Virus record (IMG/VR): IMGVR_UViG_3300027852_000036
Origin: a virus
Length of the DNA: 64,000 nt
Reading direction: 5' to 3' (one strand)
How positions within the stretch are numbered: the first letter of the stretch is position 1; every line of letters begins with the position of its first letter. Positions 7,612 through 34,478 of this stretch are shown here, in pieces. The notes beneath the pieces were generated by a model. The model was not told where the DNA came from, searched no databases, and saw only the letters and a list, made by a program, of their open reading frames with translations. The position numbers and the translations under genes are program-made.

Positions 7612-7628
7612 TTATAAATCCTCGATAA

Positions 7629-9894: not shown

Positions 9895-9934
9895 TAGTTT
9901 CCTTTTTTAATTACCACTCGGTTGTGTAGGAATT

Positions 9935-9963
9935 AAAAAAGAAACCCGAAAGCTCGGGTTTCT
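9935..9963 (-). terminator. Intrinsic terminator after the capsid gene
   Basis: Minus strand GAAACCCGAG-CTT-TCGGGTTTC followed by TTTTTT. Confidence 0.8.
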
Positions 9964-9987
9964 CTCTATTGAACGTTAGACTAAGAC

Positions 9988-17627: not shown

Positions 17628-17882
17628 TTACTTAGCTACTTTTAACAAGTTAAATTCACCCTCTGCAAAAAATACGCAGTCGCGGACAGTATCGCCATCT
17701 GCAGCTTCTAAATACCGGCACGCACGTTCAAGTAGATGCATAAAATTATATTTTCTAGCAGCCTCCGTCGCGAGGGCTTCCGTAGCGTACCAAGTGCGTT
17801 GTGGAGGCAAGATAACACTATCGTTAATCTTACATACCTCTACTGTCCTATCGTTTACTGCTTCGCTCAATATATATCTCAT
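17628..17882 (-). CDS. Hypothetical protein
   Basis: 84-aa ORF overlapping the upstream stop codon. Confidence 0.55.
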   Translation of the reverse strand: MRYILSEAVNDRTVEVCKINDSVILPPQRTWYATEALATEAARKYNFMHLLERACRYLEAADGDTVRDCVFFAEGEFNLLKVAK

Positions 17883-18304
17883 AATATCACCCTACTATAC
17901 CAGTTAAGAAAACTTGCCCTGCTAAGCTCTCCTAAAGAGAAGCCCCACGGCACACCGTGCTTTAAAAAGTATCTGATACGGCTCGCGGCCCCCTGTGGGG
18001 TATTGTCTACCGCTGCCCAATGATAACTAAACAGCCACTCTACCGTTGGTTCACCTGGCCGGGACTCTGCAAAATTCTTCTGACAGTACCTAGCCCAATC
18101 TATATCCCGAGTACCATCGTAATAACAATCAAGTACCGAGATACCAATATAAGGGCCGTGACCGATCGCACAAGCCACTGTCTGACATTCCGAATCAATC
18201 AAGCTATCTTCGTTATAGCTACCCATGTCGAAATTGGGATAGCAGGCTGGCAAAGATTCTAAGTACTTTGCTAGTCTCTTGAGGTTCTTACGTCGTTTGC
18301 TCAT
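17879..18304 (-). CDS. Family A hypothetical protein (CxTxACAxGHGP motif)
   Basis: NLKRLAKYLESLP...FDMGSY...CQTVACAIGHGPYIGI...WLFSYHWAAVDNTPQGAASRI; ATG 18304 with GAGG RBS and upstream promoter. Confidence 0.75.
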   Translation of the reverse strand: MSKRRKNLKRLAKYLESLPACYPNFDMGSYNEDSLIDSECQTVACAIGHGPYIGISVLDCYYDGTRDIDWARYCQKNFAESRPGEPTVEWLFSYHWAAVDNTPQGAASRIRYFLKHGVPWGFSLGELSRASFLNWYSRVIL

Positions 18305-18492
18305 AATATTGCCTCTGTATGTAGGGTGTAATAATATCAAAAGCACGGAAGAGTGCCAATACCTTTTAGTTATAAGAAATAAAATTCATAGGGCCTATGC
18401 ACTTCGACAAACGTAATTATGCTTTCCAGACGTAAAAAACGCATAGGCCCTCACAGACCTATGCGTTTGTTGTATGCGTTTGTTGTATGCAG

Positions 18493-19230
18493 TTACTTAG
18501 CCGTGAAGTGATCCTTTAGCTGCACCCCTCTCCAGTTATATGCTTTCGGGTTTAGCCACTTTTTCTTGGGGGTGCTGTTGACAAGGGCCTTCAAAATTGG
18601 TAGCTCCCAGTATAGAACATCCTCTAATGCGGTATGCGGTTCAGCCTCGCTGGTGTCGGTCTTGCAAATAAAGTGGCGCATTACTTCAGCATTAGTTTTG
18701 TAGCTGCAGTTACCCTTCGACGTGCGCGAATTGAATAGGTGGTTTTCGAGTATGTAGTTCTTATATGCTTTCGTGAAAGCATACTTGTCGCTAGCAGCGT
18801 GCCATAAGCAAAACTGTTTGTCAGCGAATGCGGTTAGATCAATCCCAGTATTTGCACACTGGTTTAAATCGAATGTGAGGTTGTATGCGGTTAGGTATGG
18901 ATCATACGTCTCCTTCACTTTAGCAAGCCATGCGTTTATAGCTGGTACGCTTGCAAGCATTCGCGTCCCGTTTGCCACCATATCATTATACCTGTCGTAT
19001 CTCCTAGCTAGACTTGCTTTTGTCCATAACTCTCCTGCATCATTGTTGTAAAATAGCGGGTGGTTTTCTTTATCCGTGTATATGCCGTTCACTAGGATGG
19101 CGCATTGAGCTAGAACCTCGCCTTTCTTGGTGACGACTGCCGCCCCGAAATCCGCCACTTTTGACGTACTATTTTTAGTTGGGTTTGTCGTTTCTGTATC
19201 TACTATTAAAAACGTATCTCGCTTAGCCAT
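18493..19230 (-). CDS. DEDDh 3'-5' exonuclease (DnaQ/RNase T superfamily)
   Basis: IVDTETT, AYNLTFD, HTALEDV motifs. Confidence 0.8.
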   Translation of the reverse strand: MAKRDTFLIVDTETTNPTKNSTSKVADFGAAVVTKKGEVLAQCAILVNGIYTDKENHPLFYNNDAGELWTKASLARRYDRYNDMVANGTRMLASVPAINAWLAKVKETYDPYLTAYNLTFDLNQCANTGIDLTAFADKQFCLWHAASDKYAFTKAYKNYILENHLFNSRTSKGNCSYKTNAEVMRHFICKTDTSEAEPHTALEDVLYWELPILKALVNSTPKKKWLNPKAYNWRGVQLKDHFTAK

Positions 19231-19288
19231 GTTATGCATTCCTTTTGGAAAGTAAACCCCATGCTTGCATGGGGCTGGTTTACGTGGA

Positions 19289-19630
19289 TTATTCGCTATC
19301 TTGTGGGCCGTTGACGAATGCCTCTAGTGCGTCGAGAGTCGAAACGCTTGCACTTGCGAGTGTTTCGGCCTGCAAGCCAGTGAGTCCGATCACCTCGCCG
19401 ATGCGAGCCGCTTTTTTAGCTTTTGTGTCCTTAACAACTTTCGCCCCTTTCACCGTCTCCGCTTTGACGTATAACTGAAGACTAGACAGCTTGGCGATAA
19501 CACTAGCAGGCTTCTTGCCCAGTTCATTTGCGAGCTGTTGAACTTCTGTCTTGTTGTCCTGTCCAGTGTAGCCAGCTTTCAAGTGGTCGATCATGTCAGA
19601 AGTGTAGTTAGTGCTTTTTGAAGTTTTCAT
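19289..19630 (-). CDS. T5 A2-like small DNA-binding pre-early protein
   Basis: NYTSDM...LANELGKKPASVIAKLSSLQLYVK...ETLASASVSTLDAL resembles the A2 pattern (SVRSKL, LASLESAKLETLDAV); ATG 19630 below a TTGCAA/TATAAT promoter. Confidence 0.65.
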   Translation of the reverse strand: MKTSKSTNYTSDMIDHLKAGYTGQDNKTEVQQLANELGKKPASVIAKLSSLQLYVKAETVKGAKVVKDTKAKKAARIGEVIGLTGLQAETLASASVSTLDALEAFVNGPQDSE

Positions 19631-19706
19631 AAGATACAGCCTTTTTGTATGAAACGCCTTATGGTCGTTTCTGGTTAAGGAAGCATGGTTGCTTCCAGTG
19701 ATTCTA

Positions 19707-19913
19707 TTATAGCAACAATACTGATTTAATTGCAACTAAAATTAACGAAAAGTTTAAAATAATTAATGCCGTGCATTCTCCCTTTAATACTCCCCATAAA
19801 ATCCACAGTGCGTTGCCTCCTATCGCAACGTACCAACCTAATAACAATCCCTCTCCTATTAAGTAAAGACTAATCAACGTACCCGCCATCGCTAGCCACT
19901 CGATGCATTTCAT
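19707..19913 (-). CDS. Small multi-pass membrane protein, PnuC/PQ-loop half-transporter-like
   Basis: IEWLAMAGTLISLYLIG...LGWYVAIGGNALWILWG; about 68 aa, hydrophobic. Confidence 0.5.
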   Translation of the reverse strand: MKCIEWLAMAGTLISLYLIGEGLLLGWYVAIGGNALWILWGVLKGECTALIILNFSLILVAIKSVLLL

Positions 19914-19915
19914 GA

Positions 19916-20377
19916 TCAATGCCCCTGAGGTGACGGGATATAAAACCCGCGTGCGTTGAGTGCATGACAAAGATCGCGCAAATATGTATGGTTGTCTTCG
20001 TATACCTCTACCTGTACATCTTTGAACTGGCGTAAGTTTAGCATGGGTTTAATCGCTTCGATTTTCAAAGCCGCCCCGCCTCGCATATCGTCATTGCCCT
20101 GCCTATGCACTAACTTATCCGGCTGGCCTAAATGCCGGAGTACCCACTTTGTGCTATTCTCACACCACACTCTAGCAGTAGCGATGATCGTGTAAACATC
20201 CGGATCTTTCATTCCCTCAATATACCGCTTGCATAGCGGCAGTGGAGCATCTTGTAAGACCTTATGGCTGTTATCTCGCCAGTGCTGTAAGTCGATCTTG
20301 CCATCGTTGCCTAGCGCATAGCGGTGACTAGAGTCCGCTAGACAGCCGTCGAGATCGAATACTCTAATTGTCTTCAT
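19916..20377 (-). CDS. HAD-superfamily phosphatase (possible functional analog of T5 dmp nucleotidase)
   Basis: VFDLDGCLAD, IATAR, K motif and YEDN. Confidence 0.75.
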   Translation of the reverse strand: MKTIRVFDLDGCLADSSHRYALGNDGKIDLQHWRDNSHKVLQDAPLPLCKRYIEGMKDPDVYTIIATARVWCENSTKWVLRHLGQPDKLVHRQGNDDMRGGAALKIEAIKPMLNLRQFKDVQVEVYEDNHTYLRDLCHALNARGFYIPSPQGH

Positions 20378-20562
20378 TACTTCACACCTCTGTAAAATGC
20401 ATGATTACTGAAAATATGCTTTAAGATTGGCGACACTGCCATACCTTCCATAAACGGAACCGCATGGTCTTTTGATTCTACTACAGCTACCGCTCTAGCG
20501 AGTGACTGAGTTCGTGCTGGATTTTTTGCTATATGTAGTTGGATACGCTGCTGAAAAGTCAT
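20377..20562 (-). CDS. Hypothetical protein
   Basis: 61 aa; GGAG RBS; TTGACT-N16-TATTAT promoter upstream. Confidence 0.6.
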   Translation of the reverse strand: MTFQQRIQLHIAKNPARTQSLARAVAVVESKDHAVPFMEGMAVSPILKHIFSNHAFYRGVK

Positions 20563-20628
20563 GTCGTGTGCTCCGTTTAATGTGTAGTAATAATAGCAAA
20601 TTCTGGTTAAAAGTCAAATACCGTTTGG

Positions 20629-20799
20629 TTATAAGCTAGGGTCTTGTAAGATGTCGTATAGGTCGTGTAAGGTTCCGGGCAATTCTTTTCCCACATCTTC
20701 ATCGGTGCACTCTGCGTCGATAAGCGCATCCTTTAAGTCCGCTATTTCCGACTCGGTCAATTCTACAATATTTGACCAATCAAATGCGTCGTTCATCAT
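20629..20799 (-). CDS. Small highly acidic protein (56 aa)
   Basis: 16 Asp/Glu versus 2 Lys; own promoter and GGAG RBS. Confidence 0.65.
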   Translation of the reverse strand: MMNDAFDWSNIVELTESEIADLKDALIDAECTDEDVGKELPGTLHDLYDILQDPSL

Positions 20800-20837
20800 C
20801 CTGTACTCCGTTTGTGTATGGTGTAATAATAGCACAA

Positions 20838-21914
20838 CTAATCGGATGTGCAAGCAGTATCTGAAAAATATCTTTCTAGCGGGATTCTTAGGCTGGACTC
20901 TATTCTGTCCACTCCCATCGCTTCCTCAGCCTGAAAACTCAAGCTCCAAAAGTCAAGGATATTATCAAAGTAGGTAGGTACCTTCTTGTCAGCCAAGTAC
21001 CTAAGTCTGGCCACTGCCCCAGATACAGAACTATCTAGGGAGGCCCAATTGTCAGAAAAACACCAAGCCCCACCCTTCTTACTATTACTAGGTATGAAGC
21101 AACGCTCGACGTAAGAATCCCAATCCCACAGGTTAGGATCACTCAGCCCAACTGTCTCAGCGTCAATCATAGGTATACCGGCGTCTATTCCGTGATTAAT
21201 GAGACTCTTCCCAATATCAGGTACCTCACTCTCAAGATGCTCAGCCAGTTTTTTAAGGTTTGCTATCTTCATTAGATCCGGCACTTTCCGAACCTTTCCA
21301 AGCTTCGTTCCTAACGTCTTTATGTACCTCGCCTGCAATGTCCTGCAATATTCAGGCATTGCTCCAAATGACAACACCTGCCCACGTAATATGTCTAACT
21401 CCTCTTTGGTACCGGGCTCAGCGGCCTTGCGAAGGTCTTCTTGAAAAGGTGTTATAGGGCCACCAGCAACGGGATTCCCTCCCTTAATCATTAGCCAGCT
21501 GTCGAATTGCCTTCTGTGTATAAAAAACTTAGGTACCTTCTTGTCGATAGCTAAAAGTATCCGTAACCCGGCTCCTAGCCTAGAAGTGTCCTCGCCGTCC
21601 CAATTGAAACACCACTCATAGTCACTAAAGCTACCTAGGTCAGTATGCTTGAAAAAGCAACGCCGAGCATAGGAGTCCCAATCCCAATAAGCGGGGTCAG
21701 CATGTAAACCAGTTTCACTCGTCAGTAGAGGTATTCCAGCTTCGGGGCCATAAAACAGTGCACTAGGTTTTTCTGAAGTTTCTGAACGCAGCGAGTCTTT
21801 CTCGCAGTACTGCCCAATATCCGAGTGTCCTGAAGCCTCAGCTAGGCCGATTAGATGCTTAGCCAACTTACGTAGGTTCCCAACCCTGAAGCCGTTAAAA
21901 ATGCTCATAGCCAC
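20838..21914 (-). CDS. Protein with two tandem degenerate family A domains
   Basis: Twice NLxKLAxHL...G..AGIP...W..DWDSY..RCF...WCF..W...D....GA..R...L.DKKVP. Confidence 0.7.
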   Translation of the reverse strand: MAMSIFNGFRVGNLRKLAKHLIGLAEASGHSDIGQYCEKDSLRSETSEKPSALFYGPEAGIPLLTSETGLHADPAYWDWDSYARRCFFKHTDLGSFSDYEWCFNWDGEDTSRLGAGLRILLAIDKKVPKFFIHRRQFDSWLMIKGGNPVAGGPITPFQEDLRKAAEPGTKEELDILRGQVLSFGAMPEYCRTLQARYIKTLGTKLGKVRKVPDLMKIANLKKLAEHLESEVPDIGKSLINHGIDAGIPMIDAETVGLSDPNLWDWDSYVERCFIPSNSKKGGAWCFSDNWASLDSSVSGAVARLRYLADKKVPTYFDNILDFWSLSFQAEEAMGVDRIESSLRIPLERYFSDTACTSD

Positions 21915-22060
21915 TACCTCGTCATTTCGTCTATATATGCGTCCCTAGTCATATGGCCGGAAACGTTCTCATTGTGTACGTCTAGCGCGACATCAACGGA
22001 GACATTATAGAGCACTATGGCTGCTAACGCTACTAATATTAAAACTTTTAAATTGCTCAT
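21914..22060 (-). CDS. Small N-terminally hydrophobic protein, paralog of 17403-17531
   Basis: MSNLKVLILVALAAIVLYNVSVDVAL...; TTGGCA-N17-TATTAT promoter and GGAG RBS. Confidence 0.65.
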   Translation of the reverse strand: MSNLKVLILVALAAIVLYNVSVDVALDVHNENVSGHMTRDAYIDEMTR

Positions 22061-22337
22061 GGTCGTCTCCGTTTGTGTATGGTGTAATAATAGCAAAACT
22101 AGCGAGGAGTGCCAATACCGTTTGGTTATAATAAACCCCTATCTTACGTCCATACACTTGAGTCCGAAGTGCATATGTTTCAAGTGCATATGCGCTTCGC
22201 CGCGCCGATTTTACAGGAAAACAGGAGAAAAGTCAAGGACTTCCAGACGAATGGTCATAGCTCATTTATTCACACTAATGGTTGACATTAGGTACCTAAA
22301 TACGTATAGTGTAGCTTGAACTGAGAGGAATACAGCG

Positions 22338-23213
22338 ATGGGTACACATAAGTTAATGAAAGAACTAACAGAGGGTCAGTACACTATCAACGAGAATGGT
22401 AGTATAGACGTGGATGGTAGTGTTATAATCCCTACTTACATGCGGAAAATTCCTGTTAAGTTTGGGAAAGTTACCGGAAGCTTTTGTTGTGACAACACAA
22501 AAATCACCTCACTAAGGTACGCCCCTAAAAAAGTAGGCGGCAGCTTTTACTGTAACAGCACAAGGATCACCTCACTAAGGTATGCCCCTAGAAGAGTAGG
22601 TGGAAACTTTAACTGTAACAACACAGGAATAATCTCATTAAGGTACTGCCCTAGAAAAGTAGGTGGGAACTTTTACTGCAGCAACACAAAAATCACCTCG
22701 CTAAGGTACTGCCCTGAAAAAGTAGTTGTAGGTTTTTACTGTAACAGCACAAAAATCGCTTCGTTAAGGTACGCCCCTGGAAAGGTAGGTGGAAACTTTA
22801 ACTGTAACGACACAAAAATCACCTCACTAAGGTACGCCCCTAAAAAAGTAGTCGGAAGCTTTTACTGTAACAATACGGCGATCACCTCACTAAGGTATGC
22901 CCCTAGGAAAGTAGGTAGAAACTTTAATTGCAACAACACAGGAATCATCTCATTAAGACACTGCCCTAGAAAAGTAGGTGACGGCTTTTACTGCGGCAAA
23001 ACAAAAATCACCTCACTAATGTACGCCCCTGAAAAAGTAGGTGGAAGCTTCTACTGTAGCGGCACAAAAATAACTTCGTTAAGGTACGCCCCTGAAAAGG
23101 TAGGCGGAAACTTTTACTGCAACAACACAGAGGTCACCTCACTAGGGTACGCCCCTAAAAAAGTAGTCGGAAGCTTTTACTGTAACAATACAGCGATCAC
23201 CTCACCTCACTAA
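22338..23213 (+). CDS. LRR-like solenoid protein with 11 full and 1 partial 21-aa repeats (63-bp units)
   Basis: Repeat GxFxCxxTxIxSLxxxPxKVG from 22476; TTGACA-N17-TATAGT promoter and GAGGA RBS. Confidence 0.85.
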   Translation: MGTHKLMKELTEGQYTINENGSIDVDGSVIIPTYMRKIPVKFGKVTGSFCCDNTKITSLRYAPKKVGGSFYCNSTRITSLRYAPRRVGGNFNCNNTGIISLRYCPRKVGGNFYCSNTKITSLRYCPEKVVVGFYCNSTKIASLRYAPGKVGGNFNCNDTKITSLRYAPKKVVGSFYCNNTAITSLRYAPRKVGRNFNCNNTGIISLRHCPRKVGDGFYCGKTKITSLMYAPEKVGGSFYCSGTKITSLRYAPEKVGGNFYCNNTEVTSLGYAPKKVVGSFYCNNTAITSPH

Positions 23214-23339
23214 AACACTGCTCCGGGACTAGGGTGGTTCTATAACATTCCAAAAGGTTATAACAGTGGTTTTGTTATAACCTTTAGTTATACCTAGCGC
23301 CGAAAAATGCACTTCCAGCTATTACCTTTGCTATTTTAC

Positions 23340-24255
23340 GCGACCATGAGCAGATAATCAAGTCCAAACATTAGACCGTTTGATTATAAGAAACCCACTG
23401 AAACGACCATGAGCAGATAGCCGTGTATCATAACATGAGCAGATGTGCAACCCCAAACATTAGACCGTTTGGCTATAACGAAGCGACCATGAGCAGATAG
23501 CCGTGTATCATAACATGAGCAGCTAATCAACCCCAAACATTAGACCGTTTGATTATAAGAAACCCACTGAAACGACCATGAGCAGATAGCCGTGTATCAT
23601 AACATGAGCAGATAATCAAGTACCACCGGTCGGGGACATATGTGTATGGTCGTTTCATAATAGCGATTTTTAGCGCCTAGTGCGATTTCTACAAATTTTT
23701 GGTTTTTTGGTTTCCAAATTTGTGGGAGGATTATTTTTTACGATTTAGCGCCTAGTGCGATTTCTACAAATTTTCCATAAAATCGTTCCAAGTTGAAGCG
23801 ACCATGAGCATTTATTTCTCCATGAACATTTATTTCTCCATGAGCATTTATTTCTCCATAATCATTTGAATCAAGCTGCTGCGATGGAGGACGGTGGAGG
23901 CATCTGGAACAGCCTGCGTATGGTCGCATCAGACTGGATAGGACTGGATAGGACTGGAACAGGATGTGTATGGAGATATAAGACTGGATAGGACTGGAAC
24001 GGGATGTGTATGGTCGCTTCAACTCGAACCCCTAAAAGTGTACAGGAGCGGCTAGCGAAGAGCGAAAACGGTGGAGGATTTTTGAAGCGACCATACAAAA
24101 GTTACCGAAATTTCAACAACTCTAGCAGAATTGAAGCGACCATAATCATTCTGGAGCGAAACGGTTTCGAACTGGTGCTAGGGAGAGATGGAATAATGAT
24201 GCGGGAAGGATATAGTTTTGAAGGGAGTTTTCGAATGAACGAGTGTTCATGGTCG
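23340..24255. repeat. Complex non-coding repeat cluster
   Basis: CATGAGCAG x7 in nested 60-90 bp units (23345-23630); AGCGCCTAGTGCGATTTCTACAAATTT x2; 18-bp CATGAGCATTTATTTCTC x3; 10-bp GACTGGATAG/GACTGGAAC units; 11 CGACCAT heptamers in both orientations. Confidence 0.9.
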
Positions 24256-24655
24256 TTTCAGGAAGAAACTGTGATTGTACCTTATAAATATGTAAAATCC
24301 GGGTAGGTTTTAAATGCCGGATTTTTTATACAGCAAAAATATTGAAACGCAGGAGTGGTCCCAATAATCAGTATTCGTTGTAGTTGGTAGTAAATGTTTT
24401 AGTTTGTCTCAATGGGGGGGAGTCCGCGAATTCAAAGTCGGTATGTGTTTTTTCCTTTTGGTTCCAAAAAAACATACCGGATCATTCGATCCTCCCCGTA
24501 ATTATTTCTCTAGTGTTCAATTATTACTAATATAACATATTATATCAATGATTTTCGAAAAAGCAAGTCTTTTATTTTCTCTAGCCACGTGTAAAGCGTT
24601 ATTGCGTTTGAATTTATTTCTAGGTATTTTATTTACCTGAAATTAATAATATTAG

Positions 24656-24685
24656 TTGAATTGATTAGGTTAGTTTTGTTATAAT
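24656..24685 (+). promoter_or_regulatory. Sigma70-type promoter for the first gene after the repeat cluster
   Basis: TTGAAT-N18-TATAAT with an AT-rich upstream region; AAGGAG RBS before ATG 24720. Confidence 0.55.
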
Positions 24686-24719
24686 ACATTTTCAACTAAC
24701 TGAAAGAAGGAGTTTAAAA

Positions 24720-25967: not shown

Positions 25968-26035
25968 ACAAATTTTAAACCCTTGCCAGTTAGGGATCAA
26001 CTGGCTCAACTTAATTAAACAGATAGGAGAAACAA

Positions 26036-26758: not shown

Positions 26759-26767
26759 ACAAATTAA

Positions 26768-26834
26768 ACCCGCCTAGTGCGGGTTTTTTATTGCCTCGAA
26801 TTCGAGACACAAAAAAGCCGCAATTAAGCGGCTA
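26768..26834. terminator. Back-to-back terminators at a convergent junction
   Basis: Plus strand CCCGC-CTAGT-GCGGG-TTTTTT; minus strand GCCGC-TTAATT-GCGGC-TTTTTT. Confidence 0.85.
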
Positions 26835-27041
26835 AGGGTGGTTATTCCATTCTACATCATAATTACCTATCTTATCTACTAAAGGCATTAGGGAGGGGTA
26901 ATACTTCTCTATGTTAACTACGAAAAACACTCCTCCGGAATTCATAACCACCATGTCCTTCTTAGAAGGCTTGTAACGTTTCCCAGCCTTACTAGGGTCT
27001 GGGTTATCTTTACTATAGAAAATCTTAAACTTTTTCCTCAT
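26832..27041 (-). CDS. Hypothetical protein
   Basis: 69-aa ORF, last gene of a leftward unit. Confidence 0.6.
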   Translation of the reverse strand: MRKKFKIFYSKDNPDPSKAGKRYKPSKKDMVVMNSGGVFFVVNIEKYYPSLMPLVDKIGNYDVEWNNHP

Positions 27042-27050
27042 TGTAATACC

Positions 27051-27437
27051 CTATCTAGTTGAGAATGGTTCTAGTATGTCCTGTAATTCTTGTAATAGTT
27101 TTGTTTGCTCTCGCTGTAGTTGGCTAAGCCTAACTACGATGTTCTCTCCTCTAGAGTAGTTTATTGATTCGGCCGATCTTATTAGGATATGGTCGTTGTC
27201 TTCTCCTACGAAGTATTTGCACGTTTCCTTGATTATTTCGTAGACTGTATCAGTATCATCTGATAGTTCCTGTAGTTGTGTAGCGATCTTTTCCTCACTG
27301 CTTGGTGAATGTAGCATATGTATAGCCATTATCGGCCAGAGTTTATAAATAAGCGCTAATCTCTCAGATACGTTGCCCACTCCTAGCTGTAGTGATAGTT
27401 CGTCTGATATGTGCTGAATTATTTGTTGGTTGTTCAT
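27051..27437 (-). CDS. Family C helical hypothetical protein
   Basis: KLWPIMAIH resembles SLWPAISDH of 26036; coiled-coil C-terminus. Confidence 0.65.
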   Translation of the reverse strand: MNNQQIIQHISDELSLQLGVGNVSERLALIYKLWPIMAIHMLHSPSSEEKIATQLQELSDDTDTVYEIIKETCKYFVGEDNDHILIRSAESINYSRGENIVVRLSQLQREQTKLLQELQDILEPFSTR

Positions 27438-27847
27438 AGTAGGCCTCTCAGCAAATCTATCTCGTCCTGAATGTGCTCTTGTTGCTGCCTTAAGTCTTCT
27501 ATTTGTCGAAGTACGTCATTCCGGTCAAAGAGTGCTAGGAGTTCATATAACGGGTGCTTAAAAGGTACTTCATAAAAGGTTAGTGTAGTTCTGATACATC
27601 TCTTGGCTATCTTTGCAGAAGTACCAGACTCCGCGAGAACCTCTAGTATATCCCTCTTTATTTGTTTAAGGTCGCGTTGCTTGGCTACATAACTACCATG
27701 AGCATCTGGCCCGATGTAGTTCCAAATCTCCGAAAGTGTGTGGATACTTTGTAGTATGATCTCCTCCCTAGTACTCTCCACACCTAAGGCGTATTTCCTA
27801 GTCGCAACCTTGAGAGCAATCTGTAATATGTCTTCTATTTGATCCAT
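27434..27847 (-). CDS. Family C hypothetical protein, paralog of 27952
   Basis: EIWNYIGPDAHGSY...KRC...FY...PLYELLALFD. Confidence 0.7.
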   Translation of the reverse strand: MDQIEDILQIALKVATRKYALGVESTREEIILQSIHTLSEIWNYIGPDAHGSYVAKQRDLKQIKRDILEVLAESGTSAKIAKRCIRTTLTFYEVPFKHPLYELLALFDRNDVLRQIEDLRQQQEHIQDEIDLLRGLL

Positions 27848-27951
27848 GGTTCATTGTTCCATTTAGATAAACTAAGCTTTTAGGCTTAGAACGATACTAG
27901 TAGCTTCTACACTCTAGGGCCTTTAGTCGTTTTCGTACCTCTTCCTGTTTA

Positions 27952-28494
27952 TCAAATTTGCCCCGCGTAACCATATAGACGCAAGGCCATAAAGCGTATA
28001 GGAGACCTAGCCGCTTTAGTGATTCTGCCCCCGTAGTCATCATCCATTGCTTGGCTGATATTAGCTATGGCAGCGCTTGCGATTTTATCAATAATCATAA
28101 TCCTTCCTTTAGTGTGTCTATCTCGTTTTGTAGAACTTGACGCCTGTATGTTAAATACTGTATTTTTTTTTACTAAGGTAACTTCTTTGTCAAATAGTGC
28201 CAGCACTCGGTACAGTGGATTACCTCTAGAAACAGCATAAAATTCTAATACCGCTTCGAGACACCTCTTAGTAGTGTTAGCTCCGTAGCCGTAAGATAGC
28301 AGGGCGCTGTGCGTACTGACTAAGTTCGTTCCAATATTATAACCACCATGAGCCTTTGGGCCAATGAGAGTCCACATCTCAGTAAGTGCCACTATGGTAC
28401 TTCCCAAGTTAGCTTCTCTGCTGCTACAGTATGTTGGATATTGTACCTTTACTAAACCCCGCGCAATCTCTACTATGTCTCGTGTGTTTTTCAT
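27952..28494 (-). CDS. Family C hypothetical protein, paralog of 27434
   Basis: EMWTLIGPKAHGGY...KRC...FY...PLYRVLALFD. Confidence 0.7.
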   Translation of the reverse strand: MKNTRDIVEIARGLVKVQYPTYCSSREANLGSTIVALTEMWTLIGPKAHGGYNIGTNLVSTHSALLSYGYGANTTKRCLEAVLEFYAVSRGNPLYRVLALFDKEVTLVKKNTVFNIQASSSTKRDRHTKGRIMIIDKIASAAIANISQAMDDDYGGRITKAARSPIRFMALRLYGYAGQI

Positions 28495-28793
28495 GCTGTT
28501 ACCCCCTCGAATTCTTCTTTAGTTAGTCGTTTACCTTTGATGTAGTACTCTACCGTACCGTCTGGATACTTAATAGCCGGGCCTTTTGTATTATGGTACT
28601 TGTCTTTGCGGAAGTACATCATAGTGTTATTGGCTAAGTAAACTGCTGGGCCTTCTTTTCTATCAAGTTTGTCTTTGCGAAACCAGTAGGTGTCTCCATT
28701 AGTCATTACAATAGCTGGGCCGCCTTTACGATGTCTCTTGTCTTTGTGGTACCAGAATGTACCAAACCTGTTCTCTACTACTGTATACTTCAT
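28491..28793 (-). CDS. Family B LHRxDGPA-repeat protein (3 repeats)
   Basis: HRKGGPAI, DRKEGPAV, HNTKGPAI; ends YYIKGKRLTKEEF. Confidence 0.75.
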   Translation of the reverse strand: MKYTVVENRFGTFWYHKDKRHRKGGPAIVMTNGDTYWFRKDKLDRKEGPAVYLANNTMMYFRKDKYHNTKGPAIKYPDGTVEYYIKGKRLTKEEFEGVTA

Positions 28794-28799
28794 TTTCTT

Positions 28800-28864
28800 T
28801 TCCTTTAATTCTCGATTTCAGAATATATTATACTCAATTAAGCTATGATTGTAAAGAATTAAAA
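28800..28864 (-). promoter_or_regulatory. Cassette copy 1: early promoter plus leader/RBS (no terminator)
   Basis: TTTACA (28855-28850)-N17-TATAAT (28832-28827), leader TGAAATCGAGAATTAAAGGAAAA. Confidence 0.9.
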
Positions 28865-28885
28865 TCATATTCACTTGTTTCTCCT

Positions 28886-29311
28886 TTAAATTATGTAGTC
28901 TTCAAATTCTTCTGAGTACGTGTAGGTTGCCTCTCGGCTAAAGAACCCTACGCTATCAAAGTCGTTGGGAACTCCTCGATCTAGCATATAAAGAATGCGC
29001 TTAGCAGCTCCGTGTGCCGTATCATCTACCTCCGACCAACTACTTGAGAAACACCACTCCCACTCTCGTGCGTATATACCTTTGATAAACACTCGCTCAG
29101 AGTAGTCAGGCCAGTACTCTCCTACCTCTATTGGAATTCCTGCGTAAGGCCCATGACCTACAGCACATGCCGTAGTTCCGCACTCATGTCTAGTGATGGG
29201 GGCGAATCTACTTTCTCTATCTTGACTGTAGTTATACATTCCGAAGTGACCATACCCTTCTGGTAGCCCGCTCAAATAGTAAGCTAATGTCGTAAGATTT
29301 TCAATGTTCAT
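28886..29311 (-). CDS. Family A protein, tandem copy 1
   Basis: 141 aa; CGTTACAVGHGPYAGIP; AAGGAG RBS. Confidence 0.8.
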   Translation of the reverse strand: MNIENLTTLAYYLSGLPEGYGHFGMYNYSQDRESRFAPITRHECGTTACAVGHGPYAGIPIEVGEYWPDYSERVFIKGIYAREWEWCFSSSWSEVDDTAHGAAKRILYMLDRGVPNDFDSVGFFSREATYTYSEEFEDYII

Positions 29312-29322
29312 TTGTTTCTCCT

Positions 29323-29748
29323 TTAAATTATGTAGTCTTCAAATTCTTCTGAGTACGTGTAGGTTGCCTCTAGTCCAGAGAACTCTCCGCCCTCAAAGTC
29401 GTTGGGAACTCCTCGATCTAGCATATAAAGAATGCGTTTAGCAGCCCCGTGTGCCGTATCATCTACCCCTACCCAACTACCAGAAAAACACCACTTCCAC
29501 TGTCGTGTATATCGGTCTTTAATAAACACTCGCTCAGAGTAGTCAGACCAGCGCTCTCCTTTGTTTATTGGAATTCCTGCGTAAGGCCCATGACCTACAG
29601 CACATGCCGTAGTTCCGCACTTGTATCTAGTGATGGAGTCGAATCTACTTTCTCTATCTTGATTGTAGCTATACATTCCGAAGTGACCATACCCTTCTGG
29701 TAGCCCGCTCAAATAGTAAGCTAATGTCGTAAGATTTTCAATGTTCAT
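29323..29748 (-). CDS. Family A protein, tandem copy 2
   Basis: 141 aa; 116/141 identical to copy 1. Confidence 0.8.
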   Translation of the reverse strand: MNIENLTTLAYYLSGLPEGYGHFGMYSYNQDRESRFDSITRYKCGTTACAVGHGPYAGIPINKGERWSDYSERVFIKDRYTRQWKWCFSGSWVGVDDTAHGAAKRILYMLDRGVPNDFEGGEFSGLEATYTYSEEFEDYII

Positions 29749-29975
29749 TCCGTCTCCTCCAGGAATTTAGCAATGTGGTCTAGGGACAGGCCTTCGTCGT
29801 CCTTCCTAATTACGATGCCGTTCTCTAGCTGTACTTGATCGCCTCCCTCAAAACCGTAAAATACGTCCCAATCTATGTATCCTTCCATATCTTCGATAGG
29901 TAGGAACATTAGCCCATCTGGTAAACTGTCCGAATAATCAGCTAATATTCTCAAGTTCTGTCTGTGTAGTTTCAC
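29745..29975 (-). CDS. Acidic hypothetical protein with a family A-like N-terminus
   Basis: NLRILADYSDSLPDG resembles NLxxLAxYLxxLPEG. Confidence 0.6.
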   Translation of the reverse strand: MKLHRQNLRILADYSDSLPDGLMFLPIEDMEGYIDWDVFYGFEGGDQVQLENGIVIRKDDEGLSLDHIAKFLEETE

Positions 29976-29980
29976 TTGTT

Positions 29981-30071
29981 TTTCCTTTAATTCTCGATTT
30001 CAGAATATATTATACTCAATTAAGCTGTGATTGTAAAGAATTAAAACACAAAAAACCCGCAATTAAGCGGG
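29981..30071 (-). promoter_or_regulatory. Cassette copy 2: terminator + early promoter + RBS
   Basis: CCCGCTTAATTGCGGG-TTTTTT, then TTTACA-N17-TATAAT and AAGGAAAA. Confidence 0.9.
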
Positions 30072-30656
30072 TTTGACTCTATTAAATTCTTTTTCTGTGT
30101 AGTGGTTTCCTTGTAAATACCAGTATAAATTACCGGAGTTTGTACTTACTGCTGGGCCATCTGTTCGGTGTATCAAACCTTTTCTATAGTACATAAAACC
30201 TCCGCCCTTATAGGTTACAGCAGGGCCGTATGCGCAATGTATTTTACCTTTCCTATAGCGGTAGCACGCTCCTTGTGGGTTAAAGATAGCGGGGCCTTTC
30301 TTACGGTGCAGTTTGCCCTTACGGTAGTATCTCTCGTATCCACTAGTCTGAACAACCGCAGGACCGTCCTTACGGTGTAGCTTACCCTTACGATAGTACT
30401 TAACGTACTCGCCTGTGCAAACAGCTGAGCCACCTTTGCGATGCAATCTATCATCCTTATACCAAGCATAAGCTCCGCTAGGATACTCTATCGCAGGCCC
30501 ATCTAGGCGGTGCAGTTTTCCATACTTATACCAATACTTTATCCCATCAGCTGTAATTACAGCAGGGCCATTCGGATTATGTAATACACCTTTTAGCATC
30601 CATTTAACGCTACCATCGTTACCGACCTTTACAGTGTACTCATCGTATGTAGTCAC
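30063..30656 (-). CDS. Family B LHRxDGPA-repeat protein (7 repeats)
   Basis: About 23-aa repeats; ends WYLQGNHYTEKEF. Confidence 0.75.
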   Translation of the reverse strand: MTTYDEYTVKVGNDGSVKWMLKGVLHNPNGPAVITADGIKYWYKYGKLHRLDGPAIEYPSGAYAWYKDDRLHRKGGSAVCTGEYVKYYRKGKLHRKDGPAVVQTSGYERYYRKGKLHRKKGPAIFNPQGACYRYRKGKIHCAYGPAVTYKGGGFMYYRKGLIHRTDGPAVSTNSGNLYWYLQGNHYTEKEFNRVKPA

Positions 30657-30901
30657 TTTGAGCCTCTATATATGTTAATACTATTGTCTGCACTAGCTTC
30701 TAGATCTTCTAGCCGTGTTACAAGTCCCAGAGTCACGCCACAGTCTAAGGCGTATAGTTCATGCACTACAGCTAGAGCCCTTACCAAGGCGTCTGTAGTA
30801 TCTTGGTCACTAGCTAGACCTAGTGACCCCTTAAGTCCCTGCAAAGATGTGTTATCTTTTAACTTTGCGCATACTGCTTCTGCAATATCAAGTCTGTTCA
30901 T
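30653..30901 (-). CDS. Hypothetical protein
   Basis: 82 aa, first gene after cassette 3. Confidence 0.6.
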   Translation of the reverse strand: MNRLDIAEAVCAKLKDNTSLQGLKGSLGLASDQDTTDALVRALAVVHELYALDCGVTLGLVTRLEDLEASADNSINIYRGSK

Positions 30902-30907
30902 TTACTT

Positions 30908-30998
30908 TTTCCTTTAATTCTCGATTTCAGAATATATTATACTCAATTAAGTTGTGATTGTAAAGAATTAAAACACAAAAAACCCGCAATTAAGCGGG
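30908..30998 (-). promoter_or_regulatory. Cassette copy 3: terminator + early promoter + RBS
   Basis: Near-identical to copy 2. Confidence 0.9.
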
Positions 30999-31289
30999 GT
31001 ATTTTTGATAGAACTCTTCTTTTGTGTATTGCTTATCTTCAACCCAATACTCTTCTACATTTGGCCCTTTAACAGCTGGGCCGTCTAGCCTATGTAGTTG
31101 GTCGTGCATCAACCACATCTTCGTACCATCTGCTAGAACAATGGCTGCCCCTTCGGGGTTATGCTTCTTCCCGTTAAGGAACCAATACTTAGAACCACTA
31201 TTCGTTACAGCGGCAGGCCCGCCCTTTCGATGCAGTTGGTTTTGCTTATTGAGCCAGAAAGTGCCATTGGCCTTACGCCTCTTAGCCAC
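30990..31289 (-). CDS. Family B LHRxDGPA-repeat protein (3 repeats)
   Basis: LHRKGGPAA, HNPEGAAI, LHRLDGPAV. Confidence 0.75.
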   Translation of the reverse strand: MAKRRKANGTFWLNKQNQLHRKGGPAAVTNSGSKYWFLNGKKHNPEGAAIVLADGTKMWLMHDQLHRLDGPAVKGPNVEEYWVEDKQYTKEEFYQKYPA

Positions 31290-31427
31290 CTAGAGTGCTC
31301 CCATTTCTTTTATCAACTTATCCTGTTTTTTAATATGCTCCCTCTGACTCTGTACTAACTGTATCAGTGATACTATCAGCGGACTAGCCGTATGTCTCTT
31401 TAGCAACCTTTCTAGTAAATTATCCAT
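31290..31427 (-). CDS. Small coiled-coil hypothetical protein
   Basis: Likely start MDNLLERL at 31427, coupled to the upstream ORF. Confidence 0.5.
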   Translation of the reverse strand: MDNLLERLLKRHTASPLIVSLIQLVQSQREHIKKQDKLIKEMGAL

Positions 31428-31593
31428 TGCACAACTCCAGCTCTGATAACCACTCCGATAATAAGTACTCAAGTTCTTCCACTACTATAGAGGTCTCACA
31501 CAGCTCCTCCTCTAGTTGCGTCCTACGCCTAGTCTGCGACTCAATATCTTCAATTAACTTAGTTACTTTAATTTCTATCTGTTCCCTATTCAT
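31420..31593 (-). CDS. Small acidic coiled-coil protein (57 aa), not in the ORF track
   Basis: Hand-translated MNREQIEIKVTKLIEDIESQ...LELCNG; its ATG overlaps the upstream stop. Confidence 0.55.
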   Translation of the reverse strand: MNREQIEIKVTKLIEDIESQTRRRTQLEEELCETSIVVEELEYLLSEWLSELELCNG

Positions 31594-32069
31594 GCTAGAT
31601 TGCCTTTGCTTGTATAAACGCGACCATACGCGATTTTGTAATGTGAATCAATGTCCTCAAAGTCTTCAGGATACTGGTATTTTGAAAAACTTAAATCATC
31701 CTCTAGGAAGTTCGCTGGAATGCCTTTAACGACCATGTACAGAATGCGCTTAGCTGCCCCGTGCGGAGTATCGTCTATACTGGCCCATCCTGGGGAAAAA
31801 CACCACTCCCATTCAGGAGATAAGCTATAGCTAATGAAATTCCTAGCTGAGTATATGATCCAAGGCTCGTCTGGTTTTGAGGGGATGCCTGCAAAAGGCC
31901 CATGCCCGATAGCGTCCCCACACGTACCATAAAACTCATCTAGACTAGCTGGGCAGTATTCCTTGAAAGCTGGGTGACTATTGTAGCAAGACATGTCAAA
32001 GTACATACATGCGTCATCTAGCTTCAGTAAGTAGTTTGCTAGTTTTAGTAAGTTATGTTCGTTAACCAT
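31590..32069 (-). CDS. Family A protein
   Basis: NLLKLANYLLKL...FDMSCY...CGDAIGHGPFAGIP...WCFSPGWASIDDTPHGAAKRI. Confidence 0.75.
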   Translation of the reverse strand: MVNEHNLLKLANYLLKLDDACMYFDMSCYNSHPAFKEYCPASLDEFYGTCGDAIGHGPFAGIPSKPDEPWIIYSARNFISYSLSPEWEWCFSPGWASIDDTPHGAAKRILYMVVKGIPANFLEDDLSFSKYQYPEDFEDIDSHYKIAYGRVYTSKGNLA

Positions 32070-32446
32070 CGTGTTCTCCCTAAGTCCTTTCTGTAGAAAA
32101 TACGAATCTTTATCTCGTATATAAGCCTACAACTCTCTACTCCGTTTAAGAAATACCTAGCCGGTGCCGCATTGGTGCGGGGAATAGCCGGGCCACCTAC
32201 TCTATGTAGTAATCCCTCCCTATACCACATAGTATCTCCATGTATATTAGTAACAGCCGGCCCCTCTACCCTATGTAGCCTACCTTTGTGATACCACTCC
32301 TCTACCTCTATACTAACTACCGCAGGGCCGTCATCTCTGTGAAGCCTGCCGCCTAGGTAGTGTCTATCACAACTATACTTACCTGCTTCGTCTCGCAACA
32401 CTTCCGCCCTAGAACCTAAAGATTCGTCTATTTCACTAGTGGTCAT
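32045..32446 (-). CDS. Family B LHRxDGPA-repeat protein (3 repeats)
   Basis: LHRDDGPAV, LHRVEGPAV, LHRVGGPAI. Confidence 0.75.
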   Translation of the reverse strand: MTTSEIDESLGSRAEVLRDEAGKYSCDRHYLGGRLHRDDGPAVVSIEVEEWYHKGRLHRVEGPAVTNIHGDTMWYREGLLHRVGGPAIPRTNAAPARYFLNGVESCRLIYEIKIRIFYRKDLGRTRWLTNITY

Positions 32447-32868
32447 TGTGAGCCCCTAGAGCAGATTACCATATCATCACCTACGAAACGAACTCGAACT
32501 CTTGGTTTGCTGGCACGCTTGAAATCTTCTTCAGTGTACCTAACGCCCCTTATATAGTAACGTTCGTGACCATTAAAGCTGCAAGCTGGGCCATCTAGTC
32601 GATGGCGAAGTCCGTCCTCTATATAGGAGAAACTACCATGAGGAGATTCAACCGCTGGGCCACCTATTCGATGAGCGACATCTTTGTAGTACCACTCTGT
32701 AACCCCTCCAACATACTCAACTGCTGGGCCACCTGCTCTGCTAAGCTGACCGTGGATATAATACTTCCTAGTACCTTGTGAAGTAATATAGGCCGGCCCA
32801 TCTGGGTTATGTAGCCTACCTTCATCATCGTACCATCTGATACCGTATACATCATTAACTATCTTCAT
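32443..32868 (-). CDS. Family B LHRxDGPA-repeat protein (4 repeats)
   Basis: LHNPDGPAY, LSRAGGPAV, HRIGGPAV, HRLDGPAC. Confidence 0.75.
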   Translation of the reverse strand: MKIVNDVYGIRWYDDEGRLHNPDGPAYITSQGTRKYYIHGQLSRAGGPAVEYVGGVTEWYYKDVAHRIGGPAVESPHGSFSYIEDGLRHRLDGPACSFNGHERYYIRGVRYTEEDFKRASKPRVRVRFVGDDMVICSRGSQ

Positions 32869-33260
32869 TTTTGTAGGGCTCCTAATATTTCTACGAAAGT
32901 GTTCAAGTCCTTTTCTTCCCTAATTTTCCTCTTAGCATTTTTTTGCTCATTATGCCTCTTGCTCAGCTCGTCCCACACACTAGTAGATGCGTTCTCACAG
33001 AATCCTGTTGAGCTACTTCTCAGAATTGCCGCTTGCGTATTAGCGTACCAGAAGTCTATAGTACAGGTGCTATACTTAACCTCACATATAGGAGGCGGAC
33101 AAGGTGTTCTACCTCCTGAGCTCCGCTTAATTGCCGCTAAAGTGTATTCTCCTCCAATGTCGATTACTAGTACTGAGCTATTGGGACGAAAGACCTCTTC
33201 TGAGCTACGTACTAGCTTCAACACACTAAATAGTGCTACTGTTACATCTGATTGATTCAT
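32865..33260 (-). CDS. Family D hypothetical protein
   Basis: LxLxxSSEEVxxP...VLVI...LAAI...DFWY shared with the two adjacent ORFs. Confidence 0.7.
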   Translation of the reverse strand: MNQSDVTVALFSVLKLVRSSEEVFRPNSSVLVIDIGGEYTLAAIKRSSGGRTPCPPPICEVKYSTCTIDFWYANTQAAILRSSSTGFCENASTSVWDELSKRHNEQKNAKRKIREEKDLNTFVEILGALQK

Positions 33261-33261
33261 T

Positions 33262-33678
33262 CTAGTAACCTCTTATAATCATTGATAAGTTGCGAAGGTT
33301 TTCTTCTTGCTCCTTCCTGTTTTTAGCGGCAATTAAGTCCTTTTTTCGACCTGAAAATGCCTTACCTATAACTCTGGAGTCGCCCTTATTAAACCCTGCT
33401 GACTTGCTCTGTATTGCTGCAGTAGTACAGTGGTAATACCAGAAGTCTAAGCTATCTGTGCTGCGTACTATACGATACTCGTTGCGACTGGGACTGCCTC
33501 TATTAATAGTAGTAATAGCCGCTAGAACATGGCTGCGGTCTAGTTGGATGACTAATACGCCTGCCTTAGGGCTCAACACTTCTTCCGAACTACTTATCAA
33601 CTGTAAAACCTCGTCCCTTAACTCTTTTGAATAAGATTGTTTCATTTGAATATCCTGTAAGTTGTGTTCGTCAATCAT
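33262..33678 (-). CDS. Family D hypothetical protein
   Basis: QSYSKELRDEVLQLISSSEEVLSP; ends RGY. Confidence 0.7.
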   Translation of the reverse strand: MIDEHNLQDIQMKQSYSKELRDEVLQLISSSEEVLSPKAGVLVIQLDRSHVLAAITTINRGSPSRNEYRIVRSTDSLDFWYYHCTTAAIQSKSAGFNKGDSRVIGKAFSGRKKDLIAAKNRKEQEENLRNLSMIIRGY

Positions 33679-33679
33679 T

Positions 33680-34051
33680 CTAGTAACCTCTCAAAGTGTC
33701 TGAAAATAGGCGAAGACTCGACTCTCGATCCTTTTCGTTTTTTTCGGCAGCTAAGTACTTTCTTCTGTATAAAAGCGCTTTACCTATACATAGAGAGTCG
33801 CCTGTATCAAACCCTGTCAACTCGCTATTACCTAGTGCATCATCCAATTTACACTCCCAGAAGTCTAAACTATCAGGACTATATACGATTTTGAAGCTAT
33901 CTGAAAAATAAGCACAGCGTATAGCTGCTAAAGTGAGTTCACCACTTAGTTTGATGACAAATACCCTCGCTCTAGGACTAAGAACCTTTTCCGCGCTACT
34001 TATCAACTGCAAAACCTCGTCCCTTAACTCTTTTGAATAAGATTGATTCAT
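33680..34051 (-). CDS. Family D hypothetical protein
   Basis: MNQSYSKELRDEVLQLISSAEKVLSP; ends DTLRGY. Confidence 0.7.
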   Translation of the reverse strand: MNQSYSKELRDEVLQLISSAEKVLSPRARVFVIKLSGELTLAAIRCAYFSDSFKIVYSPDSLDFWECKLDDALGNSELTGFDTGDSLCIGKALLYRRKYLAAEKNEKDRESSLRLFSDTLRGY

Positions 34052-34052
34052 T

Positions 34053-34478
34053 CTAGTAACCCCTCAAAGTGTCGCCATCTGTGTAAATACTTTTCTCGTA
34101 ACTGCGGTATTGTTTGAAATACGCTGGAACTCCGCGATCTAACATATACTGAATTCGTTTAGCTGCCCCGTGAGGAGTATTGTCTACTTTAGCCCAGGTA
34201 GCAGAGAAACACCATACCCACTCATCTGATCCTCTGTCTGTGACAAAACATCTACTAGAGTAGTCTTCGAAATCTTCTCCGTCATGTAGTGGAATCCCGG
34301 CGTAAGGGCCATGACCTACCGCGCAGGCGGCTGTTCGGCAATGGCCGTATGTTTCAACTGTATCGCCTGACATATCGTCATCATTGAATACGCTCATTTC
34401 AAAGTGTTCGTAGTCTTCTGGAAGTTCGCTAAGGTAGCGAACTAATGTCTTTAGGTTGGCTGTTTGTAGGTTAGTCAT
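34053..34478 (-). CDS. Family A protein
   Basis: CRTAACAVGHGPYAGIP...WCFSATWAKVDNTPHGAAKRI; ends DTLRGY. Confidence 0.75.
   Translation of the reverse strand: MTNLQTANLKTLVRYLSELPEDYEHFEMSVFNDDDMSGDTVETYGHCRTAACAVGHGPYAGIPLHDGEDFEDYSSRCFVTDRGSDEWVWCFSATWAKVDNTPHGAAKRIQYMLDRGVPAYFKQYRSYEKSIYTDGDTLRGY

Follow-up and report, generated by a model that had tools for sequence, protein, structure and literature searches.

The 64,000-nucleotide stretch of viral DNA catalogued as IMG/VR record IMGVR_UViG_3300027852_000036, whose full length is called the window throughout, carries on its minus strand an expanded family of small proteins that we refer to as family A. A preliminary description had placed at least seven copies of this domain, plus an N-terminal remnant, between positions 17879 and 34478, and every open reading frame (ORF) that it named is present there on the minus strand. 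We built a hidden Markov model (HMM) from an 80-sequence alignment of the family (A3) and ran it on the six-frame translation of the whole window, which yielded exactly seven family A domains, five of them full-length copies and two degenerate, and no further copies elsewhere in the 64 kb. The family A genes and one possible relative are listed below with the independent E value (iE) of each HMM match.

17879-18304, minus strand: family A copy 1, 141 amino acids (aa) from the ATG at 18304 (iE 3e-42)
20838-21914, minus strand: two-domain ORF, 358 aa, with degenerate domains at about 21507-21887 (iE 6e-13) and about 20961-21272 (iE 9e-15)
28886-29311, minus strand: family A copy 2, 141 aa (iE 4e-52), the downstream half of a recent tandem pair
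29323-29748, minus strand: family A copy 3, 141 aa (iE 5e-52), the upstream half of the same pair
29745-29975, minus strand: 76-aa ORF whose first 22 or so residues resemble the family N-terminal helix (NL..LA.Y...LP)
31590-32069, minus strand: family A copy 4, 159 aa (iE 4e-45)
34053-34478, minus strand: family A copy 5, 141 aa (iE 1e-53), with the full motif set; used for structure prediction

The five full copies, all on the minus strand and about 141 to 159 aa long, share 38 to 83% pairwise identity, and C-x4-C is intact in four of them. The ORF of copy 1 can be extended from a GTG to position 18346, and an identical database gene call (P0017) begins at the ATG at 18304; this copy keeps the C-x4-C...H motif, has Leu at the Cys position of the "WCF" block and is the only near-neutral one, with an isoelectric point (pI) of 7.6 against 4.6 to 5.0 for the others. 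Copy 4 has Y and D at the two motif Cys positions and retains the His, a pattern found in 2 of the 322 unique family A sequences on which all conservation figures given here are based. On another contig, a relative of copy 5 (P0002) shares 78% identity with it. In the 358-aa ORF, the cysteines are absent from both domains, and the His is absent from domain 1 and present in domain 2, which has lost the Cys loop; a tblastn search with this ORF against 50,697 phage records found no match. The reading frames of all window copies nevertheless remain open, and the conserved core apart from the cysteines is kept. The count of seven domains thus stood, but the proposed remnant at 29745-29975 was undetected by the family A HMM. 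Aligned with the A3 profile by hhalign, it reaches a probability of 88% over 22 N-terminal columns only, and because the match is limited to these helix columns, its status as a remnant or truncated relative of family A is plausible but weak.

Family A extends far beyond this phage. A word-indexed search with one copy returned 11 proteins; an exhaustive profile search of 1.84 billion representatives returned 2,829 clusters at 50% identity with E values of 1e-3 or lower, including 1,973 at 1e-10 or lower and 264 at 1e-30 or lower. Most members are 130 to 190 aa long, with a handful of two-domain forms; the source names of all those retrieved are "hypothetical protein," and none has a precomputed Pfam domain. 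The family's clusters in the ESM Atlas are 88 to 94% viral. A tblastn search of the 50,697 cultured-phage records detected the family in about a dozen, all annotated as hypothetical: the Pootjesviridae phages of Agrobacterium and Rhizobium OLIVR5/6, LG08, IC12, and IG49, with two copies each, as well as Synechococcus phage BUCT-ZZ01, Ochrobactrum phage ORM_20, Chryseobacterium phages MA9V-1/2, and Alishewanella phages. In OLIVR5, the two matches are gp147 and, judged by position, gp149. The architectures of the carriers are diverse, comprising a T5-like phage, Pootjesviridae myoviruses, a cyanophage, and 200-kb Chryseobacterium phages; in cultured T5-like phages, tblastn found no member. Two strict motif patterns run against 185,579 species genomes gave seven loci only, in Sphingomonas, Sphingopyxis, Kordiimonas (three), a Planctomycetota metagenome-assembled genome (MAG), and a Saccharibacteria MAG. 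The Sphingomonas locus, the one examined, is a phage-like nucleotide-metabolism module with RNR, ThyX, NUDIX, exonuclease, and Nmad5 genes. Judged by these searches, family A is a genuine, widespread, and previously unannotated phage protein family.

The family is built around a strongly conserved center, C47-x4-C52-A-x-G-H56-G-P, together with M28, D99-N-T101, and an invariant R108; a disordered loop of variable length (0 to 46 residues) precedes it, and the N-terminal helix is well conserved too. The two motif cysteines and H56 are each conserved in 98% of the sequences, and other polar or sulfur-containing positions are nearly as constant (N8, 95%; M28, 97%; D99, 96%; T101, 92%; R108, 100%), as are aromatic residues (F26, 98%; W70, 95%; Y73, 96%; F91, 100%; W95, 99%) and a set of Gly, Pro, Ala, and Ile positions (G55, 99%; P58, 95%; G104, 97%; A105, 98%; I109, 98%). 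The motifs listed in the preliminary description coincide with these family-wide blocks, except that the Cys of "WCF" (C90) is found in only 59% of members and is replaced by Leu in 20% and Met in 14%, and it therefore behaves like a residue of the core. At position 25, His is likewise present in only 52%. With C90 and H25 poorly kept, the secure set consists of Cys-Cys-His plus Asp99, Met28, and Arg108, which would suit either a Cys2-His-(Asp/Met) metal site or a thiol-based active site, the latter being considered because C52 begins a helix in the predicted structure. With a median pI of 4.9, a median net charge of -9, and 83% of its members at a pI lower than 6, the family is acidic, and this counts against binding to nucleic acids. 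Two candidate functions of the Cys/His motif were rejected: c-type heme attachment, as the motif is not CxxCH and there is no export signal, and a DNA-binding zinc finger, as the family is acidic. As a lead only, family A can be compared with the zinc-binding anti-sigma (ZAS) domains, whose H-x3-C-x2-C motif forms a structural zinc site in a small helical protein. Both are small helical domains in which a few Cys/His residues lie close together where a helix begins, but the C-x4-C-x3-H order and spacing of family A differ from those of ZAS domains, family A has only three conserved Cys/His positions, and there is no sequence match.

The AlphaFold2 model of copy 5, computed with the 80-sequence alignment, has a pLDDT of 82 and a pTM of 0.79 (a shallower alignment gave a pLDDT of 77). 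The predicted domain, of about 125 residues, is compact and all-helical: a long N-terminal helix (residues 3 to 18) is followed by an extended conserved segment (19 to 29), a disordered loop (about 33 to 49), a short helix that starts at C52 (52 to 55), and four more helices. Judged by their sequence homology to copy 5, the one modeled, the other window copies probably have this fold too. Searches with the model were negative. Foldseek gave no convincing match in the PDB (best E value, 3.6), the best row in BFVD (E value, 1e-2) led unconvincingly to an unnamed phage protein, and a wide VIA-align search with both models found no convincing fold match. In the ESM Atlas, searched by shape and features, TM scores did not exceed 0.36 with the AlphaFold model, and values of 0.58 and 0.51 were reached only with unnamed viral clusters. 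On the strength of the model, a known fold cannot be named, and a new fold is not thereby proved. Sequence libraries gave the same picture: Pfam and NCBIfam had no match to the 80 family members, PHROGs v4 and PADLOC-DB had none to the window copies, and PDB sequence searches with two profiles returned chance rows only (E value of about 0.1, to cobalamin adenosyltransferase). Sub-threshold rows, which we attribute to chance, named ZP-C (E value, 0.12), Imm32 (0.03), and IBR (0.0012, in 1 of the 80 members). The profile, library, and structure searches thus bear out the earlier impression that this is a genuine paralogous family without a named relative, no profile match to a characterized family and no convincing fold match having been obtained.

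Copy number and divergence were examined in 43 IMG/VR loci, within 10 kb on either side of the family A gene. Arrays occur independently in several of them: locus L002 has seven tandem copies, L001 has six, L010 has four domains including a two-domain ORF, and L007, L014, and L020 have three copies each. Among the window copies, as in the L001 array and the L002 array, the variable segments are residues 29 to 46, 63 to 69, 79 to 88, 92 to 98, and 119 to 126, and the N-terminal helix, the Cys/His block, and D-N-T-P-x-G-A-A-x-R-I are near-fixed across the paralogs of all three. The tandem pair formed by copies 2 and 3 differs by 40 nucleotides (10 synonymous and 30 nonsynonymous differences) and 25 amino acids, and the changes lie in these shared variable segments; the nonsynonymous (dN) and synonymous (dS) rates are 0.096 and 0.121, a dN/dS ratio of about 0.79. 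A FastTree phylogeny of 319 sequences, based on a short alignment and including some near neighbors that are the window's own database records (P0001, P0003, P0004, and P0017), places the full window copies in at least three separate deep clades whose common ancestor spans 307 tips. Members of the L001 and L002 arrays interleave in this tree; their paralogs are therefore old and retained rather than freshly amplified.

Two other families accompany family A outside the window, in which neither was found. In 10 of 48 loci, a gene no more than 10 kb away from family A belongs to DUF6197 (PF19698), an uncharacterized family of bacteria and phages, or to an unnamed family of about 100 aa that we call family C. 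DUF6197-like genes account for 5 of the 48, being directly adjacent to family A in L023 and interleaved with it in L050, a Planctomycetota contig with the order A-DUF6197-A. In L023, an 80.7-kb IMG/VR provirus, nine tandem DUF6197 paralogs (positions 5897-10020; 32 to 43% identical to the first copy, with L023:9309-9686 matching the Pfam family at 65 bits) lie directly upstream of two family A genes, and L018 has an array of six DUF6197-like ORFs. The literature searched mentions no DUF6197 arrays, the name appearing there only as an annotation label. Family C, with the motif IDLNNLT...C-x-Y-x-x-P-C-[IV]-I-G-x-[LM]...Q..FD...W..VL, is found beside or inside family A arrays at six loci (L001, L002, L006, L010, L021, and L030), and the N-terminal part of P0113, a protein of 254 aa, is a family C sequence fused to a family A domain; this N-terminal extension has no PDB relative, and the family C member that was scanned (L006:11286-11600) has no Pfam match. 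Coordinates of family C genes in four of these loci are as follows.

L001:8843-9169 and L001:11911-12342, family C genes
L002:9817-10170 and L002:12654-12995, family C genes
L006:11271-11597, family C gene
L021:9214-9998, family C gene

DUF6197 resembles family A in its similar size, its phage and prophage settings, and its tandem arrays, as well as in an N-terminal helix (L..DL.A.R.LL..P..W compared with NL..LA.YL..LP..Y), a Cys motif (C-x-C-L-x-G-A compared with C-x4-C-A-x-G-H), and a C-terminal motif (FND-x-NT-x-H..VL compared with W...DNTP.GAA.RI). It differs in having C-x-C instead of C-x4-C and in lacking the G-H-G-P His and the tryptophan-rich middle. The DUF6197 Pfam HMM (gathering score, 24.6 bits) detects none of 80 family A members even at an E value of 0.01, and hhalign of a shallow alignment of 10 DUF6197 sequences (A5; Neff, 2.9) against A3 is not significant (E value, 0.075; probability, 0.75%); under relaxed settings, the two align co-linearly over 110 columns, pairing the three motif blocks. 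Family C is like family A a small phage protein, with a C-x5-C-hydrophobic-hydrophobic-G motif, but its profile similarity to family A or DUF6197 is not significant (probability below 1%). Common to all three is a layout of an N-terminal helix, Cys-(x1-5)-Cys-hydrophobic-hydrophobic-Gly, and a conserved C-terminal helix motif. Since adjacency and fusion are seen and the profile comparisons are not significant, a functional association of the three families is supported by gene order, and common descent is only a lead.

The window derives from a metagenomic phage, and the single sequencing run that contains the stretch, no RNA run being listed, is marine-metagenome DNA and probably represents the source sample; the TerL of the phage is 47 to 49% identical to those of T5-like phages of Enterobacter, Vibrio, Serratia, and Pectobacterium. 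By these markers, the phage is T5-like and marine. At the DNA level, the region has no match to any cultured phage, and the database records of the window's family A proteins belong to an 88,917-bp contig. The family A copies sit in the block of small genes that separates the structural module from the replication module.

1-16 kb, minus strand: structural genes, including a T5_p143 tail-completion homolog, a protease-capsid fusion, portal, and TerL
19916-20377, minus strand: HAD-type phosphatase, 153 aa, matching phrog_415; dmp homolog
From about 45 kb, plus strand: replication genes, including RNR, a DnaB-like helicase, a family A DNA polymerase, and another helicase

The phosphatase is 31 to 33% identical (E value, 4e-6) to the T5-like dmp protein, a deoxynucleoside-5'-monophosphatase whose gene is located at T5-like genome ends, and it is flanked by copy 1 and the two-domain ORF. 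It may thus mark a pre-early-like module, a placement (first-step transfer) to be read with the fact that genome ends are not defined in the metagenomic contig. A consensus scan found five near-identical TTTACA-17-TATAAT sites that partition the accessory block at 28.8 to 35.1 kb into cassettes, four of them preceded by a terminator hairpin, AACCCGCTTAATTGCGGGTT, and a T-run. A further site lies upstream of copy 1.

35114-35051, minus strand: promoter-like cassette (pattern match only)
34575-34512, minus strand: promoter-like cassette directly upstream of copy 5, with the hairpin at 34575-34556 and TTTACA-17-TATAAT at 34540-34512 (pattern match only)
30998-30936, minus strand: promoter-like cassette (pattern match only)
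30074-30009, minus strand: cassette upstream of the 76-aa ORF and the tandem pair, with the promoter-like site at 30037-30009 (consensus scan)
28855-28827, minus strand: promoter-like site (pattern match only)
18331-18359, minus strand: promoter-like site upstream of copy 1, TTGGCA-17-TATTAT with TG (pattern match only)

The 76-aa ORF is the first gene after the site at 30037-30009. The preliminary description had placed the copies in both pre-early and early regions. This placement finds partial support: two members flank the dmp homolog and the others lie behind sigma70-like cassettes, but the putative A2 gene (19289-19645) has no match. Large lytic phages carry multi-copy accessory families in their early regions, the pre-early genes of T5 among them. 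Family A resembles such accessory families in its small genes, its paralogous expansions, its host-type promoter-like sites, and its position between the structural and replication modules, and it resembles the T5 pre-early genes in that two window members adjoin the dmp homolog; unlike either, it has an unusually conserved Cys/His center and a very wide distribution.

Most of the 150 nearest same-strand neighbors of family A genes have no Pfam family. Those that have one include helix-turn-helix regulators, ERF and YqaJ recombinases, AAA_24, PD-(D/E)XK nucleases, helicases, YopX, and AlpA, which by annotation is an early, recombination, and replication setting. In an all-against-all clustering of the ORFs at 42 loci, no neighbor cluster occurs in more than 7. 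The family A HMM, run without filters against the 150 neighbors, revealed no hidden distant paralogs, and a Pfam search of ten chosen neighbors found no match. No fusion of family A to a known domain was seen, only self-fusions and the one family C fusion, and among the longer fused forms searched there was only a 330-aa self-fusion.

Other genes of the block were noted alongside. The gene adjoining copy 1 (18493-19239, minus strand, 248 aa) has a match in phrog_20187 and a weak one in a PHROG for a DNA polymerase exonuclease subunit, making it a candidate DEDD-type exonuclease. The gene at 34580-35026 (minus strand, 148 aa) is among the few in the block with any family, phrog_11543 (E value, 2e-17), to which PHROGs assigns no function. 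Six minus-strand genes, interspersed among the family A copies, form a second expanded family. They encode tandemly repeated units about 23 residues long (G-P-A-x...Y/W-[FY]-x-x-G-K-L-H-R), MORN-like by eye; Pfam is not significant, giving only a sub-threshold DUF6745 row for 30063-30656. A third family of three adjacent paralogs (about 123 to 138 aa) lies directly downstream of copy 5 and has no Pfam or PHROG match. Three adjacent genes at 27051-28494 have an apparent N-terminal likeness (...L.E.W..IGP.AHG.Y...) that suggests a further small paralog set, again with no family match.

28491-28793, 30063-30656, 30990-31289, 32045-32446, 32443-32868, and 35651-36211, minus strand: genes of the 23-residue-repeat family
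32865-33260, 33262-33678, and 33680-34051, minus strand: third-family paralogs, common block SKELRDEVLQLISS.E.VLSP...L.AAI
27051-27437, 27434-27847, and 27952-28494, minus strand: adjacent genes with similar N termini
22338-23213, plus strand: 291-aa protein with about a dozen 21-residue repeats (...KVGG.F.C.NT.ITSLRY.P...) and a borderline DUF3805 match only

Considering these data, we tentatively favor, at rather less than even confidence, a reading in which family A is a host-directed early effector with a metal or thiol center and in which multi-copy phages hold a repertoire of specificities. C47, C52, and H56, perhaps joined by Asp99 or Met28 as the fourth ligand, would form a metal site, most likely for zinc, or else a reactive thiol center. 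Each family A protein would work by itself at an early stage of infection, using this unchanging center to act on a host component; stand-alone action is suggested because no neighbor cluster recurs widely and no known-domain fusion was found. The ordered loops at residues 63 to 69, 79 to 88, 92 to 98, and 119 to 126, together with the disordered loop at 29 to 46, would set specificity, and for that reason phages with several copies, including that of the window, may hold a set of specificities for host takeover or counter-defense. An anti-defense role is plausible; PDB sequence and fold searches, in which solved anti-defense proteins were included, gave no match to family A, and a keyword literature search for tandem anti-defense paralogs returned nothing relevant.

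Several points weigh against this reading. About 28 of the 43 viral loci carry a single copy, so that a repertoire is not the family's general mode; of the repertoire proposed in the preliminary description, what stands are the independent arrays of two to seven copies, the same variable loops and fixed core in three arrays, the deep clades, and the divergence of the tandem pair, but most phages are single-copy. The dN/dS of that pair, about 0.8, is based on 40 differences and is not above 1, and the variable loops may simply be less constrained surface. There are only three conserved Cys/His ligands, C90 and H25 being Cys and His in 59% and 52% of members, with D99 (96%) or M28 (97%) as alternative candidates for the fourth. 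The cysteine-free window copies would mean either that the center is dispensable for their role or that these copies are decaying. The promoter assignments are consensus matches only, and no characterized homolog of family A was found. Finally, a near-invariant polar center in phages of very different hosts would fit an enzyme at least as well as a protein that binds polymorphic targets.

That family A is an enzyme is a somewhat unlikely alternative. C52, H56, and D99 would then form a nucleophile, base, and acid center, or C47 and C52 a redox pair; R108 would bind the substrate, and the selection among substrates would be adjusted by the variable rim loops. Candidate substrates are small molecules, for instance a signal derived from a nucleotide, as well as protein side chains and modifications of nucleic acids. 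The near-invariance of C47, C52, H56, D99, T101, R108, and N8 across about 2,800 clusters and unrelated hosts is what an active site would predict, and the start of the short helix 52 to 55 at C52 in the model, the single copy as the usual state, and a bacterial-genome copy beside RNR, ThyX, NUDIX, exonuclease, and Nmad5 genes point the same way. However, no fold or sequence match to a known enzyme class was found, the small all-helical domain has no evident cofactor motif, D99-N-T-P precedes a helix and may be only its cap, and cysteine-free copies (31590 and both domains of 20838-21914) are kept in the window.

It is improbable, in our estimation, that family A instead serves the phage itself, as a regulator of transcription or replication or as a helper in assembly or maturation, with redundant or stage-specific paralogs. 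The replication, recombination, and regulatory neighbors and the confinement of the family to phages and prophage-like elements would suit such a role, but no module contains a conserved partner gene, the carriers differ widely in architecture, the acidic charge speaks against DNA binding, and absence from the cultured T5-like phages searched indicates that the protein is not part of a core machine. Most improbable of all is that the window copies are merely the neutral outcome of duplications within an accessory region prone to recombination, several of them decaying and none functionally diversified: repeated cassettes could drive unequal recombination, and the degenerate two-domain ORF, the 76-aa fragment, the Cys-less copy, and the recent pair's dN/dS near 1 all fit, but every copy retains an open frame and the non-Cys core, the copies fall into deep clades that are each conserved separately, copy 5 has its 78%-identical relative on another contig, and arrays recur independently in other phages with interleaved L001/L002 orthology.

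The host-directed effector reading can be extended to a bolder one, to which we give a low probability, lower than that of an enzyme: family A, DUF6197, and family C could together form one unrecognized superfamily of phage-encoded, cysteine-centered helical proteins with a new fold, present singly or in diversified tandem arrays of up to seven to nine copies and neutralizing variable host targets, such as defense systems or their signals, through a conserved metal or thiol center. Such a superfamily would mirror, on the phage side, the diversity of host defense genes. DUF6197 membership would leave the mechanism of family A unexplained, because DUF6197 itself has no assigned function.

Paralogous accessory families in phage early regions are known already. 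What is new is family A itself, whose motif and apparent fold match nothing in the libraries searched, and its link with DUF6197 and family C, which is absent from the libraries and literature searched. A family of about 2,800 clusters without a Pfam, NCBIfam, or PHROGs entry is a concrete and testable piece of phage "dark matter," and since cultured carriers are known, the question is open to bench work. The stand-alone early genes, the diversified arrays, and the linkage to DUF6197 and family C are features by which candidates for host takeover and counter-defense are commonly shortlisted. Should the three families turn out to be a single superfamily, this would place DUF6197 in a functional context for the first time.

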